From Alphaproteobacteria bacterium (GTDB lineage: Bacteria; Pseudomonadota; Alphaproteobacteria; Bin95), in contig JAJDYL010000101.1 of NCBI GenBank assembly GCA_022825195.1, forward strand, positions 7,740 through 71,739: DNA of 64,000 nt, written 5' to 3'. Shown here piece by piece: positions 1 to 8,331 of this stretch. The notes below the pieces were generated by a model. It did not search any database, was not told the DNA's origin, and saw only the letters and a program-made list of their open reading frames with translations. A program made the position numbers and the translations under genes. The first letter of the stretch is position 1. Each line of letters starts with the position of its first letter.

Positions 1-1047
1 CTGGAGCTGCTGGACGAGAGCTACGAGTTCCGGCGGTCCACGGATTTCATCAGCAGGAATTTCTCCGGCGTGGAAACCTACGAATACTCGCTCAGCGCCG
101 GGCGGGAAGGCGGCGTCACGGATGTCGACTACCTGAAGCGGGTGGACGCATTTGCGGCCTGGTACCGGACGCAGCCGGAAGTCGCCCACGTCTTCGCGAT
201 CTCCGACATCGTGAAGCGCCTGAACAGGAACCTGCATGGCGACGACCCCGACGAGTACCGCCTGCCGGGGGATTCGGACCTCGCCGCGCAATATCTGCTG
301 CTCTACGAATTCTCGCTGCCGGCCGGGCGCGACCTGAACAATCTGATCGACGTCGACCGGTCTTCCACGCGCATGACCGTCGTGTTGAAGAGCCTTTCCA
401 CCGCCGAGAAGATCGCGCTCGACGACCGTGCGCAGGGCTGGTTGCGGCAGAACGCCCCCGGAATGGAAACCGGCGCCACCGGCGTGGCGCTTGTCGGGGC
501 CCATTCGATCCAGAGGAACATAGAAGGCATGCTGCTCGGCACCGTCATCGCGATGGGCCTCGTCTCGCTGCTCCTGCTTCTCGTCTTCAAGAGCGTGCGC
601 CTCGGCGCGATCAGCCTGATACCCAATTTCGTTCCCGCCGCCATGGCGATGGGCCTGTGGGGCTATGTCGTGGGCGAAGTCGGGGTCGCGGCGTCGGTCG
701 TCACCGCGATCGCCTTCGGCATCATCGTGGACGACACCATCCACTTCATGACCAAATATGTTTCGGCCAGGAAGAGCGGGCTGCTGCCGTCGGAATCGGT
801 CCAGTCCGCCTTCCGCTCCGTCGGCCGGGCGCTGCTGGCGACGACGGTGGTGTTCGGGCTCGGATTCATGGTGTTCGCGGCATCGGGGCTGGTGACCAAC
901 CAGGCGCTCGGCCTGCTCGTGGGAATGACGGTCGTCATCGCGCTTCTGGCCGACTTCCTGTTCCTCCCGCCGCTGCTGATGGCGCTCGACCGCGCCGGGG
1001 AGACGAGCGCGGAGATCAGGGAGCGGCTGCGGCGGGAAGCCGGCTAA
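1..1047 (+). CDS. RND-superfamily (MMPL/HpnN-like, COG1033-type) inner-membrane exporter, C-terminal part; 5' end lies outside the window
   Basis: Frame 1 is open from nt 1. The translation shows multiple TM helices and the conserved RND/MMPL C-terminal transmembrane block (GIIVDDTIHFM..., LLADFLFLPPLLMAL). Paired with the LolA-like gene downstream. Confidence 0.75.
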   Translation: MELLDESYEFRRSTDFISRNFSGVETYEYSLSAGREGGVTDVDYLKRVDAFAAWYRTQPEVAHVFAISDIVKRLNRNLHGDDPDEYRLPGDSDLAAQYLLLYEFSLPAGRDLNNLIDVDRSSTRMTVVLKSLSTAEKIALDDRAQGWLRQNAPGMETGATGVALVGAHSIQRNIEGMLLGTVIAMGLVSLLLLLVFKSVRLGAISLIPNFVPAAMAMGLWGYVVGEVGVAASVVTAIAFGIIVDDTIHFMTKYVSARKSGLLPSESVQSAFRSVGRALLATTVVFGLGFMVFAASGLVTNQALGLLVGMTVVIALLADFLFLPPLLMALDRAGETSAEIRERLRREAG

Positions 1048-1124
1048 CCCGGCGTATTATGCTATCCTGCAGGAAAAGGCTTCGGCGGGGCCGTACGCGC
1101 CCCGGCTGCCGACAGGAGGAAACG

Positions 1125-1934
1125 GTGATACGCGCATTTCTCTCCCGCCCGCTGCCTGCGCTTTTCGGGCTCTTGCTTGCGGTCTTCGCCTGGCCGGCAG
1201 GCCTGGCGGCCGAAAGCGCCGAGGAAGCCGGGCTCAGGATCGCGACGGACGCCCGCGAACGGCAAAAGGGCTTCGGCAATTTCATCGCAGGCATGACCAT
1301 GACGCTCCGCAACAAGCGGGGCCAGGAGAGCCGCCGGGAAGTCCGCCTGAAGGTCATAGAGGTCGAGGCGGACGGCGACCGCACCCTGTTCGTGTTCGAC
1401 CGGCCGCGCGATGTCCGGGGAACGGCGTTTCTCGTCCACGCCCACAAGGAGGAGGCCGACGAGCAGTGGCTCTATCTCCCCGCCCTGAAGCGGGTCAAGC
1501 GCATCAGCTCCTCGAACCAGTCGGGTTCCTTCATGGGCAGTGAGTTCTCATACGAGGATCTGGGCACCCCCGAGGTCGAGAAATTCACCTATCGCCATCT
1601 CCGCGACGAAGCCTGCGGCGAACTCGAGTGCGTGGTTCTGGAGCGCGTGCCGACCGACAAGGATTCCGGATATTCCAGCCAGCTTGTCTGGTTCGACCGG
1701 GAGGAGCTGCGCACCCTGCAGATTCAGTTCTTCGACCGCAGGAAGGCCCATCTCAAGACGATGGTAGTGGAAGGCTACAAGAAATATCTCGGCCGCTTCT
1801 GGCGAAGCAGCAAGATCACGATGACCAACCATCTCACGGGAAAGAGCACCGTGCTGGACTGGTCGGACTACGAGTTCGGCACCGATCTCGACCTCGGCGA
1901 TTTCACACGCACGGCGCTGAAGCGGGCGCGGTAG
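1125..1934 (+). CDS. LolA-like outer membrane lipoprotein-sorting protein family (periplasmic hydrophobic-ligand carrier); GTG start
   Basis: AGGAGGA RBS 7 nt upstream of GTG at 1125. N-terminal signal peptide (LPALFGLLLAVFAWPAGLAAES). Central block EQWLYLPALKRVKRISSSNQSGSFMGSEFSYEDL is characteristic of this family, which commonly sits next to COG1033 RND exporters. Confidence 0.7.
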   Translation: MIRAFLSRPLPALFGLLLAVFAWPAGLAAESAEEAGLRIATDARERQKGFGNFIAGMTMTLRNKRGQESRREVRLKVIEVEADGDRTLFVFDRPRDVRGTAFLVHAHKEEADEQWLYLPALKRVKRISSSNQSGSFMGSEFSYEDLGTPEVEKFTYRHLRDEACGELECVVLERVPTDKDSGYSSQLVWFDREELRTLQIQFFDRRKAHLKTMVVEGYKKYLGRFWRSSKITMTNHLTGKSTVLDWSDYEFGTDLDLGDFTRTALKRAR

Positions 1935-1960
1935 CGCCCGGGCCTAACCGGGTTTCCGCG
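1935..1960. terminator. Weak bidirectional hairpin between convergent genes (cccgg-gcctaa-ccggg followed by ttt)
   Basis: Inverted repeat seen directly in the 10-nt gap between the two converging stop codons. T-run is short, so weak. Confidence 0.25.
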
Positions 1961-6503: not shown

Positions 6504-6753
6504 GCGATACGGACTCTCCCAGGTCCGGCGGTCGCGGTCTTCCCCAACCGATTAATCGGTCCGGCAGCGAAGGTAATTATATACCTTACAATATCGCGTA
6601 AGGCGCGGCAACGGAAACAGTCAGCGAAGTGGAAACGGCTCCAACCTCAAACCGCATTCGACAACTTCGCGATACCGGCCGGTCGGGATTTCATGTCCGG
6701 CTCGGGCATCTCCGGAAATCCGGGAGCGAAGCCTGCCTGCAGACGGTGGTAGT
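6504..6753. promoter_or_regulatory. Divergent promoter region between the Rieske-P450-SMT operon (minus) and the COG2907 gene (plus)
   Basis: 250-nt AT-richer spacer (attaatcggtccggcagcgaaggtaattatatacc) with a small hairpin ccttac-aatatcgc-gtaagg. No operator consensus recognised. Confidence 0.3.
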
Positions 6754-8145
6754 ATGGGGGCGATGAATGAAACGGCGCAAGCAGCCTTGCCGAGAAGGAT
6801 TGCCATTATCGGCGCAGGCGTCTCCGGACTGGGGGTAGCCTGGGCGCTGCACCGCCATCCGGACCGGTTCGATTTCCGACTGTTCGAAGCCCAGGCCCAA
6901 ATCGGCGGAAACGCCATTACGGTAGATATGCCGCAGGACGACGGCACGTCGGTTCCTTTCGATATTTCGGTCACTGCCTGCATTCCCTCAGTCTATCACC
7001 ATATTGTCCTGCTCATGCAGCAGCACGGCATAGAACTGGTCGATACCAGATTCAGCTACAGCGTAAAGTACCGAGGCGGTATCTACGCTCACGATTTCGA
7101 CTCCGAAATCAGGAGGCAGCTGCAACCGGAAATCGACAAATTCCAGAGGCTCCTGAGATGTTTGAGGCGAGTGGGCACGCTCAACCGGTCCAGGTCCAGA
7201 CTGCTCAATGCTCTCAACCCGTTGAACTATGTCAGCATGGGCGCACTGCTCAATTTGGGCAGATTCTCCGGAGACTTCAGATACAAGATACTCAAGCCTA
7301 TGTTTGTCAATTTCCTGATGGCGACGAATGTATTCGATATGTCCGCTTCCCTGTTTGCCCGCTATTTGGAATTCTTCGATATTGAAACAGCAACCCCTAT
7401 GCAAACCTGGAAACAGGGAACACGGAGAATCTATGAAGAAATTTCAGCAGGTTTTCGGGAAAAGATTTACCTTAGCCGACCGGTTCATAAAGTATACCGC
7501 CATCGGTCAAAAGTGGTTGTAGAGGATGAGGGTGGGAATATGGAAACATTCGACGATGTCGTTCTTGCGTGCAATGCAAATCAGACATTGATGATTCTCG
7601 ACAAACCGTCTTTTTTGGAAAGCAGCCTTCTGTCTTCGGTCCGATACGAAAGCGAGTTGCATAACCACACCGTCGTGCATTCTGACGCGTCCGTCCTTCC
7701 GGATAACGAGGCCAGGCCCCTCGCCACGCGGAGCAACCATATCGAACAGTACGGCACCAGGCCCGACAATTACGAAATCACCTACATCATGCACAATCAG
7801 CAGCCTTGGGCGAAACGGTCGGACAAGCCCTGCCTCGTCACCTACAATCCGATCAGCCCTATCGACGAGGCTAGGATCGTCAGGAAGTGGTGGTTCCAGC
7901 ACATCGTCCACGATGTCCGCCATGTGACGGTTCTGACGCAGCTGTTTCGCTTCATCCAGGGCAGGAGGCGGACATGGCATTGCGGGGCCCACACGCTGAT
8001 CAACAGCCAGGAGACCTGTTTCGTATCCGGCCTTGTCACCGCGGGGCAGCTGGGCGCGGGCTATCCGTTTCAGGACGCTGAGGCACGGCGCTGGTTCAAC
8101 TTTTACGGGCGCATAATGTTCGGCTGGCGCTTCCGGAAGGCCTGA
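6754..8145 (+). CDS. FAD/NAD(P)-binding amine-oxidase-like oxidoreductase, COG2907 family (the family usually found beside cyclopropane-fatty-acid synthase genes)
   Basis: N-terminal Rossmann fold RIAIIGAGVSGLGVAW...FEAQAQIGGNAITV. Overall layout matches COG2907 members as I recall them (VVLACNANQTLMIL, C-terminal WHCGAH...SGL). Confidence 0.7.
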   Translation: MGAMNETAQAALPRRIAIIGAGVSGLGVAWALHRHPDRFDFRLFEAQAQIGGNAITVDMPQDDGTSVPFDISVTACIPSVYHHIVLLMQQHGIELVDTRFSYSVKYRGGIYAHDFDSEIRRQLQPEIDKFQRLLRCLRRVGTLNRSRSRLLNALNPLNYVSMGALLNLGRFSGDFRYKILKPMFVNFLMATNVFDMSASLFARYLEFFDIETATPMQTWKQGTRRIYEEISAGFREKIYLSRPVHKVYRHRSKVVVEDEGGNMETFDDVVLACNANQTLMILDKPSFLESSLLSSVRYESELHNHTVVHSDASVLPDNEARPLATRSNHIEQYGTRPDNYEITYIMHNQQPWAKRSDKPCLVTYNPISPIDEARIVRKWWFQHIVHDVRHVTVLTQLFRFIQGRRRTWHCGAHTLINSQETCFVSGLVTAGQLGAGYPFQDAEARRWFNFYGRIMFGWRFRKA

Positions 8146-8255
8146 ATCCGGCTTGTTCCGCCGCTTGCCATCGACGGCGGGCCTGCTGTATCCAGCCTTC
8201 GGCCCCGGAGGGGTCAGGCAACCGGTCGGATCGGGGAGGGAGCGGGAACAGGGAA

Positions 8256-8331
8256 TGGTGCCCAGGGGCGGACTCGAACCACCGACACGCGGATTTTCAG
8301 TCCGCTGCTCTACCATCTGAGCTACCTGGGC
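8256..8331 (-). tRNA. tRNA-Phe (GAA), CCA encoded
   Basis: Reverse complement reads GCCCAGGTAGCTCAGATGGTAGAGCAGCGGACTGAAAATCCGCGTGTCGGTGGTTCGAGTCCGCCCCTGGGCACCA. Folds as a cloverleaf with a 7-bp acceptor stem; anticodon loop CUGAAAA carries GAA. Confidence 0.9.

Follow-up and report, generated by a model that had tools for sequence, protein, structure and literature searches.

The first 8,331 nucleotides (nt) of a 64,000-nt stretch of DNA from Alphaproteobacteria bacterium (GenBank assembly GCA_022825195.1, contig JAJDYL010000101.1, positions 7,740 to 71,739; the window hereafter) carry an island of six protein genes, bounded by a tRNA-Phe gene, that encodes a sterol methyltransferase (SMT), a cytochrome P450 fused to a GPP34 (GOLPH3-like) domain, a Rieske oxygenase, a flavin adenine dinucleotide (FAD) oxidoreductase, an RND/MMPL transporter and a LolA-like protein. 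Judged by sequence comparison, this island is probably an accessory, mosaic and horizontally exchanged locus, the products of which would alkylate, oxidise and export sterols that are made elsewhere in the genome. Bacterial SMTs (Brown et al. 2023, PMC10070321), steroid gene clusters that sponge symbionts carry and that are enriched in sponge microbiomes (Kelly et al. 2022, PMC9531527) and GPP34-P450 fusions (PMC11706023, Microbiome 2025) have each been published before. What is new is that these three threads meet in one recurrent, transferable locus, together with a KshA-like oxygenase, a highly conserved flavoenzyme and an envelope transporter, and that this locus is distinct from the core pathway. 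If this reading holds true, the GPP34-P450 gene, a symbiosis-specific gene of unknown function, gains a concrete role in sterol oxidation, and a second layer of bacterial sterol metabolism, comprising tailoring and envelope trafficking, would be spreading horizontally among symbionts of at least four phyla.

A search with the GPP34-P450 protein against one genome per GTDB species yielded 51 loci, all of them in metagenome-assembled genomes (MAGs), and thereby 52 loci including the window. These loci belong to Alphaproteobacteria, Defluviicoccus, Arenicellales, Ectothiorhodospiraceae, Candidatus Poriferihabitaceae, Dehalococcoidia/Chloroflexota and a Binatia-like lineage, and they span at least four phyla. 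Partner genes were counted within 10 kb of the fusion gene by clustering of open reading frames (ORFs) after removal of shadow ORFs. An MMPL transporter of any type accompanies the fusion gene in 38 of the 52 loci, at a median gap of approximately 500 nt (type A in 21 loci, 12 of which also have the LolA-like partner, and type B in 17), a KshA_C Rieske oxygenase in 31, and an SMT and an FAD oxidoreductase in 25 each. Six loci (L033, L041, L035-L037 and L048) moreover contain a fused squalene epoxidase-oxidosqualene cyclase (SE-OSC) of 1140-1190 amino acids (aa) with a DCTAE motif, and the last four of these contain the minimal recurring set of SE-OSC, GPP34-P450 and MMPL transporter. An SMT or an oxidosqualene cyclase (OSC) is found near the fusion gene in 29 of the 52 loci, against approximately 3% expected (p ~1e-30), and the link is reciprocal, as an SMT homologue with 69% identity, used as a query, retrieved the complete island in several JGI metagenome contigs. 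The same gene set thus recurs in more than 50 independent loci, far beyond chance, while the flanks vary from locus to locus and consist of housekeeping genes, for example those of riboflavin synthesis (rib) and secDF. So far the island has been found almost only in bacterial sponge symbionts. The jk18x isolates are Ircinia sponge symbionts (Kelly et al. 2022, Table S1), and the other isolates presumably originate, to judge by their naming, from Aplysina, Rhopaloeides and the coral Porites.

Table 1. Genes and domains of the island in the window, with coordinates counted from the first nucleotide of the window.
Feature	Position	Strand	Supporting matches and remarks
RND/MMPL (HAE3-type) transporter, C-terminal ~348 residues	1..1047	+	PF03176 1.5e-18; gene runs past window start
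LolA-like protein	1125..1934	+	PF17131 (TP_0789-like) 8.7e-60
SMT 'type A', 341 aa	1944..2969	-	Sterol_MT_C PF08498 6.3e-23; S-adenosylmethionine (SAM) methyltransferase domains
GPP34-cytochrome P450 fusion ('GPP34_L'), 675 aa	3116..5143	-	PF05719 2.3e-26; PF00067 1.2e-32
GPP34 (GOLPH3-like) domain of fusion	4496..5101	-	Pfam; residues 58-259 of 718-aa ORF
P450 domain of fusion	3191..4411	-	Pfam; residues 288-694 of 718-aa ORF
Rieske [2Fe-2S] non-haem iron oxygenase with KshA_C, 371 aa	5388..6503	-	Rieske PF00355 2.1e-17; KshA_C PF19298 1.7e-24
FAD oxidoreductase, amine-oxidase/phytoene-desaturase superfamily (UfaD/LkcE-like), 463 aa	6754..8145	+	Amino_oxidase 2.3e-14; NAD_binding_8
tRNA-Phe(GAA), right-hand island boundary	8256..8331	-	ARAGORN

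The original prediction for this DNA, which had been made from the sequence alone, listed the same six protein genes and the tRNA gene, and all of them were recovered in place. It also stated that the window contains no OSC, which was confirmed for the whole 64 kb, in which homologues of CYP51, ERG24 and SdmA/B are likewise absent. Most likely, the sterol nucleus would be made by a separate cluster with a fused SE-OSC and CYP51, ERG24 and SdmA/SdmB-like genes. The DNA stems from an uncultured alphaproteobacterium of ~68% GC. Its closest named relative, jk18x22bins.31 from Ircinia ruetzleri (order 'Bin95', 68.3% GC), the P450, SMT and MMPL proteins of which are 83%, 85% and 88% identical to those of the window, carries its ERG24-CYP51-LSS 'cluster of steroid genes' (CSG) on a contig other than that of its island (Kelly et al. 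2022, PMC9531527, Table S1, Data S1). The 3' part of that cluster, translated from the supplementary FASTA file of the same study, encodes a bona fide OSC with a VSDCTAE motif, and with this OSC as a query an SE-OSC of 1139 aa (P0254) was retrieved from a 5,378,753-bp contig, the closest complete relative, which also bears the island locus L001. On this 5.38-Mb contig the island (1.39-1.41 Mb) and the core cluster (L055; 3.69-3.71 Mb) are 2.3 Mb apart. The suggestion that the core genes of the window might lie just upstream of position 1 is not borne out by this relative, in which the syntenic upstream region holds an outer-membrane protein (OMP) beta-barrel gene and housekeeping genes. Besides the SE-OSC, L055 contains ERG24, a third SMT, a CYP51 of 469 aa with the AGQHTS signature, and an Amino_oxidase gene of which the product is 80.5% identical to the FAD protein of the window. 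Two further genes of the cluster resemble SdmA and SdmB: the product of the Rieske-VanA_C gene reaches 398 bits on the model of the former, and that of the 3-beta-HSD/SDR gene 292 bits on the model of the latter.

The island and the CSG, as well as the SMT-bearing sterol clusters described from bacteria (Brown et al. 2023, PMC10070321), share organisms and habitat, the SMT family, the FAD family and transfer across phyla, and CSG and island are physically joined in the six loci with an SE-OSC. They differ in content: the CSG makes the nucleus and removes methyl groups from it (SE-OSC, CYP51, ERG24, SdmA/B-like), whereas the window island lacks these genes and has instead a non-CYP51 GPP34-P450, a non-SdmA KshA_C Rieske protein and a transporter set. 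The proposal that the block tailors and exports sterols rather than builds the nucleus has thereby gained support from several sides, namely the adjacency to SE-OSC in six loci, the FAD paralogue in the core cluster, the residues of the SMT, and the sterol-sensing and Patched scores of the type B transporter that are described below. The island would accordingly be a second sterol locus in lineages that are able to make sterols de novo, and for the genome of the window we infer this from its relatives. Fused SE-OSC proteins of ~1140 aa were located at L033:17857-21345, L035:6459-10022 and L055:10001-13420 and among the proteins P0133-P0273; of the candidates that were scored, 1910 belong to this family at E <= 1e-30, and its members are 66-96% identical across classes.

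The substrate could also come from the host, in that sponge or dietary sterols would be imported via the OMP, the LolA-like carrier and the MMPL transporter and remodelled for the membrane of the symbiont itself or for exchange with the host, independently of bacterial synthesis. The island is almost confined to host-associated bacteria (see also PMC11706023), an OSC is missing from the 10-kb neighbourhood in 46 of the 52 loci, the island is transferred as a block apart from the core cluster, and two of the six island-bearing Ircinia MAGs have no reported core cluster, all of which would suit such scavenging. These points are opposed by the joining of the island to SE-OSC in six loci, by the FAD gene that is common to the island and the biosynthetic cluster, and by the co-occurrence of the core cluster with the island, both in the closest complete genome and in 4 of the 6 island-bearing Ircinia MAGs, compared with 115 of 537 MAGs overall (Fisher p = 0.02). 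Moreover, RND/MMPL/HAE3 transporters of known lipid cargo (HpnN, BstA, MmpL3) move lipid outward, which also counts against import. Scavenging of host sterols is, on balance, an unlikely explanation of the island.

The sterol assignment of the locus leans first of all on the SMT, for which the original prediction of an unambiguous ERG6/SMT-type enzyme stands. PF08498 (Sterol_MT_C) scores 81 bits (cut-off 21.7) and class I SAM methyltransferase domains (PF08241/PF13649) match as well; the protein contains the C-terminal domain and each of the four substrate-binding regions, and it keeps 25 of 25 residues conserved in functional SMTs, including Region I GWGxxFHF, Region II DxGxGxxGP, E195 and G217. 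The protein shares these substrate-binding regions and this C-terminal domain with eukaryotic ERG6 and SMT1-SMT2, and it falls in the bacterial clade. Its identity to yeast ERG6 is 41%, as determined with an ERG6 sequence, which agreed with 28 of 28 residues cited in the Brown and Welander preprint and on which the ERG6 numbering is based. Yeast ERG6 has Y81 and D249, whereas the window SMT has F81 and G249, which are linked to multiple methylation in bacterial SMTs, as well as A243. In bacterial SMTs, G249 is needed for C-24 propylation and a Region I Phe raises propylation, neither of them being sufficient, and A243 is a residue common in ethylating SMTs (Brown and Welander preprint). The window SMT thus displays the residues of propylating (24-isopropyl-forming) enzymes, i.e., G249 plus Phe at 81 and/or 83, a combination that is necessary and not sufficient. 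It would methylate the Delta24 side chain, and because of F81 and G249 it may do so repeatedly. A search for SMT homologues found 2815 proteins, of which the named ones occur in Rhodospirillales, Defluviicoccus, Nitrospinae, Dadabacteria and Palauibacter MAGs.

The closest complete relative possesses three SMT paralogues of different types, which suggests a division of labour among them. The SMT of its core cluster (L055) has Y81, F83 and D249, as in single-methylating enzymes. A 'type B' SMT is encoded at L001:8527-9561 and, beside the GPP34-P450 gene, in approximately 20 other loci (e.g., L004, L010 and L031); the window contains no copy of it. Type B proteins are approximately 40% identical to the window SMT and depart from the 25-residue consensus at T78, F89 and L341 (they have S/N78, L89 and M341) and sometimes at G86, next to which they have M81 and I/V249, and their substrate or regiochemistry could accordingly be another.

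The P450 protein carries an N-terminal GPP34 domain that the original prediction overlooked, so that GPP34 and P450 are joined in one polypeptide. The maximal ORF reaches TTG 5272 (718 aa). Translation most likely starts at ATG 5143, because GAGGAGG lies 8 nt upstream of it and the resulting 675 aa agree with the length of the relatives (675-677 aa). End-to-end alignment with the window fusion was obtained for 48 full-length relatives, among which the Cys haem ligand and the ExxR motif are invariant. In all 48, the I-helix reads YLGD-A-(L/F)-S (approximately residues 519-539 of the 718-aa ORF) and is without the conserved oxygen-activating Thr, which hints at unusual P450 chemistry. The best PDB match of the P450 domain reaches 1.7e-17, and no solved P450 is close. 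Identity as a CYP51 was considered and rejected, as CYP51 structures score 36-59 bits and the I-helix of the window protein is YLGDAFS, not AGQHTS; with the CYP51 in the closest complete relative, which does bear AGQHTS, the protein shares 25% identity.

Two-domain proteins of this architecture and with this taxonomic spread are known as GPP34_L, and the window protein belongs to them; 656 of these fusions have been described, and they were reported to be exclusive to sponge symbionts (PMC11706023, Microbiome 2025). The same study proposed that the fusions bind host phosphatidylinositol 4-phosphate (PI4P) and thereby block phagosome maturation, and it makes no mention of sterols, MMPL transporters or methyltransferases, whereas here the fusion is found among sterol and transporter genes. 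As a host-directed effector, the protein would disturb phagosome maturation and its sterol-type neighbours would be unrelated to it or loosely connected. The homology of GPP34 to eukaryotic GOLPH3/Vps74, the presence of the fusion in sponge symbionts of many phyla and the invariance of W81, the tryptophan of the PI4P pocket, across the fusions lend this idea its appeal. Residues R90, R171 and R174 of GOLPH3 reportedly take part in PI4P binding (Dippold 2009, Wood 2009). When a profile of 15 fusions was compared with human GOLPH3, W81 was found to be kept, whereas V, E and I stand in the places of R90, R171 and R174; three of the four PI4P-binding residues of GOLPH3/Vps74 would therefore be lost, and it is stated as a further new point, with moderate confidence given an alignment of only 26 bits, that the PI4P pocket is unconserved in the fusion. 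Besides this, the fusion has no signal peptide, it strictly keeps the motifs for P450 catalysis, which depends on haem and on bacterial redox partners, and the gene is tightly linked to an inner-membrane transporter, an SMT, an SE-OSC and a KshA-like oxygenase in at least four phyla, so that an effector function of the fusion is improbable.

As part of a sterol-tailoring locus, the GPP34 domain would attach the protein peripherally to the membrane or to lipids, so that a P450 of a kind that is normally soluble in bacteria could reach a membrane-embedded sterol, a role comparable to that of the N-terminal anchor of eukaryotic sterol P450s. In the literature library that was searched, no paper was found that ties GPP34 to sterols in sponges.

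The Rieske protein had been described as KshA/SdmA-type, of which the first half stands and the second does not. Its architecture of a Rieske domain followed by KshA_C is that of KshA (PDB 4QDC, 4QDF, 2ZYL), and the motifs CPH...CPFH and DLGHLRYVH (D-x2-H-x4-H) show that the ligands of both the 2Fe-2S centre and the mononuclear iron are intact, as they are in KshA. The best PDB matches are KshA proteins (3e-25), in an alignment that spans residues 16-180 only. On the SdmA model (NCBIfam NF052579, cut-off 600) the protein scores 26 bits, from the N-terminal Rieske part only, and SdmA identity was therefore rejected; the Rieske protein of the core cluster, which matches the SdmA model over its full length, is 18% identical to it. 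The family comprises 401 representatives at E < 1e-30, with uninformative names. A cluster found on 88 contigs, represented by P0308 (645 aa; named from an Acidimicrobiia MAG), is 41% identical to the island oxygenase and has an N-terminal extension of ~295 residues without a Pfam match. This protein was examined as a GPP34-Rieske 'Rosetta stone' and rejected as such, as the extension shows no similarity to the GPP34 profile.

A P450, a flavoprotein and a Rieske oxygenase form the classic opening trio of aerobic steroid degradation. Together with the KshA_C domain and the KshA matches, this would fit a catabolic locus for host steroids along the lines of actinobacterial cholesterol degradation, in which the first steps would fall to the P450 as a side-chain hydroxylase, the Rieske protein as a KshA-type 9-alpha-hydroxylase and the FAD protein as a dehydrogenase. 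The gene context tells otherwise: neither the window nor the 52 loci contain KshB, KstD-family (FAD_binding_2), Hsa, beta-oxidation or Mce genes. The FAD protein is of another family (Amino_oxidase, LkcE/UfaD-like) and has its paralogue inside a biosynthetic cluster, and the locus holds biosynthetic SMTs and in six cases an SE-OSC. Steroid catabolism is for these reasons very improbable. Compared with KshA, the island protein is without the KshB reductase and stands in a biosynthetic context, and it might just as well desaturate its substrate or hydroxylate it at a position other than that of KshA.

The FAD oxidoreductase matches LkcE in the PDB over its full length (2.2e-26) and is strongly conserved, with 76-82% identity between Alphaproteobacteria and Chloroflexota. 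In free-living bacteria, the nearest homologues align over more than 90% of the length at 27-30% identity, too distant for a transfer of function, and occur in sigmaE/ChrR-FAD-DUF1365(-CFA-synthase) clusters, which we take to resemble the ufaD operon of R. sphaeroides. UfaD is a desaturase that is specific for the methyl-branched acyl chain made by a CMAS-family methylase (PMC7380195). The UfaM-UfaD-UfaO pathway for furan fatty acids (Lemke et al. 2020, PMC7380195), in which a CMAS-superfamily SAM methylase acts on a double bond and is followed by a phytoene-desaturase-type FAD enzyme and then by O2-dependent oxygenases, follows the same logic as the island; the differences are that the substrate would here presumably be a sterol side chain or ring instead of a phospholipid acyl chain, and that the island contains no DUF1365/UfaO homologue. 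A role as sterol desaturase or isomerase is a lead that these similarities provide. An analogy with the 10-methylene reductase BfaA was dropped, as BfaA is described as an FAD-linked oxidoreductase and compared with MurB, unlike the phytoene-desaturase-like protein of the window.

The transporter is 88-92% identical to those of L001, L002 and L004; full-length relatives have 760-801 aa, and the L001 orthologue has 778 aa. It is a member of the MMPL/HAE3 superfamily, and its NCBIfam scores (HAE3 73, HpnN 55 and BstA 27 bits) are all under the respective cut-offs, so that it is not assigned to BstA or HpnN at the equivalog level. Sterol as its cargo would follow from the gene context. The type B MMPL transporter, which is mostly found in Chloroflexota, passes the Pfam cut-offs of the sterol-sensing (56 bits) and Patched (47 bits) domains. 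The LolA-like gene is paired with the type A transporter in the 12 loci counted above and is also present in L056-L059. Its start is likely GTG 1125, which follows an AGGAGG Shine-Dalgarno sequence and gives the signal-peptide-like N-terminus VIRAFLSRPLPALFGLLLAVFAWPAGLAAE, and the product is a candidate periplasmic lipid carrier; among the NCBIfam families, including BstB/BstC, none matches it. As in BstABC of Methylococcus capsulatus and in HpnN systems, an RND inner-membrane protein, a periplasmic carrier and an outer-membrane component are found beside cyclic-triterpenoid genes. The island differs from these systems in that the scores are far below the equivalog cut-offs, in that the periplasmic partner is a LolA_like/TP_0789 protein, and in that the Chloroflexota loci use another MMPL type without a LolA-like gene. 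In relatives, a protein of 418-450 aa without a Pfam match, which is not encoded in the window, is found with the LolA-like gene on one side and the MMPL or P450 gene on the other (L026:13150-14442, L006:13198-14454, L009, L011 and L056:12547-13803), and it may add another envelope component to this transport system.

A lipid other than a sterol might be the substrate of the oxidative enzymes and the cargo of the transporter, for example a different triterpenoid, a polyene akin to carotenoids or methyl-branched acyl chains; the SMT would then be the sole sterol enzyme of the island. Among characterised proteins, UfaD is nearest to the free-living homologues of the FAD protein, and it does act on acyl chains; the families closest to the transporter are the generic HAE3 and HpnN, and the P450 has no close characterised relative. 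This option is nevertheless rather improbable, as it is countered by the minimal sets of SE-OSC, GPP34-P450 and MMPL transporter, by the FAD gene beside SdmA/B-like, ERG24 and CYP51 genes, by the steroid-associated KshA_C domain, and by the type B transporter that passes the sterol-sensing cut-offs.

That the island is exchanged horizontally is indicated by several observations. The P450 proteins of Alphaproteobacteria and Chloroflexota are 64-78% identical. L001 has the same island gene order as the window and an identical tRNA-Phe at the same boundary; the island genes of the two are 74-83% identical, and the flanking housekeeping genes (window 8492-11884) 89-92%. This contrast in divergence, together with the low GC content, suggests allelic replacement at a fixed chromosomal site. 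The GC content is 56-58% at 4-8 kb of the window versus ~68% elsewhere, and the P450, Rieske and FAD genes have 54-61% versus 66% in the flanks. As evidence of transfer the GC content is partial, since island genes mostly follow the GC content of their host (r = 0.6-0.9), from which the P450 and FAD genes differ by being 3-4 points lower. Gene remnants were detected as well: a ~75-residue remnant of the 3' end of a second P450 gene is present at L001:9671-9894, where it lies upstream of the type A SMT gene and has the type B SMT gene on its other side, and SMT fragments (66% and 45% identity) at L034:12382-12677, where the GPP34-P450 gene is the sole surviving island gene. These remnants point to replacement and decay of island genes, and together with the identities across phyla and the divergence contrast between the window and L001 they argue for repeated horizontal exchange and allelic replacement. 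The core cluster L055 is flanked by transposase, rve, three phage-integrase, IS21 and resolvase genes (L055:15740-23420 and 3549-3758); the core pathway, too, sits in mobile DNA.

The position of the island next to a tRNA-Phe gene, to which the original prediction drew attention, holds as a location and not as a demonstrated integration site. No integrase is encoded in the window at 1-20 kb or in L001, and no tRNA-Phe-derived, att-like direct repeat of at least 13 nt was found at a plausible boundary, so that the island lacks both the integrase and the repeats of the tRNA 3' end that mark a tRNA-integrated genomic island; tRNA genes flank the island in approximately 10 of 53 loci. Within the island the FAD gene is divergent from the Rieske gene. 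The predicted Rieske-P450-SMT operon fared in part: the co-orientation was confirmed and the gaps of 245 and 146 nt were reproduced with the P450 start at ATG 5143, and a scan for consensus promoters and terminators performed at chance level. An operon is plausible from orientation and spacing alone.

From the domains and the gene context, we infer the substrates and reactions of all island enzymes and the direction of transport as follows. After methylation of the side chain by the SMT, the FAD enzyme, a distant relative of UfaD, would desaturate or otherwise redox-edit the sterol, and the KshA-like Rieske oxygenase and the GPP34-P450 would add oxygen to it or remove hydrogens from it. The MMPL transporter, the LolA-like carrier and, in relatives, the OMP beta-barrel could then move the product from the inner to the outer membrane. 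Several findings weigh against this account. The promoter and terminator sites found in the island are no commoner than in shuffled sequence, which does not speak for co-transcription, and no ferredoxin, ferredoxin reductase or KshB-like partner is encoded in the island. The two island-bearing Ircinia MAGs without a reported core cluster are 92.7% and 93.5% complete, and they are split into 734 and 222 contigs; for the genome of the window itself, a core cluster or OSC is presumed from relatives only. Furthermore, the relationship of the FAD protein to UfaD amounts to no more than 27-30% identity, the transporters score 27-33 bits on BstA (NF045600; cut-off 1400) and 55-120 bits on HpnN (TIGR03480/NF052374; cut-off 752), and the loss of PI4P-binding residues is read from the GOLPH3 alignment of 26 bits.

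A further-reaching and tentative idea, which may well prove wrong, is that the fusion, at present the best-known marker gene of 'sponge symbiosis', works as a sterol oxygenase tethered to the membrane and not as a host effector, and that it forms, with the Rieske and FAD enzymes, up to three SMTs and the transporter, a hitherto unrecognised pathway that makes and exports unconventional sterols, the side chains of which would be desaturated, oxygenated or alkylated several times. Some of the 'sponge' sterol inventory, possibly including precursors of 24-isopropyl-type biomarkers, would in that case be bacterial in origin. The F81/G249 SMT, the divergent type B SMT, the Thr-less P450, the KshA-like oxygenase and the flavoenzyme with its ~80% identity across phyla are candidate enzymes for unusual sponge sterols. 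Bacterial SMTs complicate the sponge biomarker record, and the island bears on the question of which organisms made the 'sponge' steranes in the rock record as well as on the handling of sterols in the bacterial envelope.

Two further observations concern genes other than those of the island. A polytopic membrane protein of 244-277 aa (59-63% identity), without a Pfam or NCBIfam match, is encoded beside SMT genes in the core cluster and in some islands, not that of the window (L055:14473-15207, L033:15896-16663, L041:14603-15388 and L052:12544-13374), and it is a candidate sterol enzyme. Within the window, a second spot of low GC content (59% over 54-56 kb) coincides with an orphan ORF of 199 aa at 54025-54624 on the minus strand. 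Its neighbours, which we take from their translations to be housekeeping genes, resemble an alcohol dehydrogenase, a 3-hydroxyacyl-CoA dehydrogenase and an electron-transfer flavoprotein. The N-terminus of the ORF is signal-peptide-like, and the product may be a recently acquired secreted protein.

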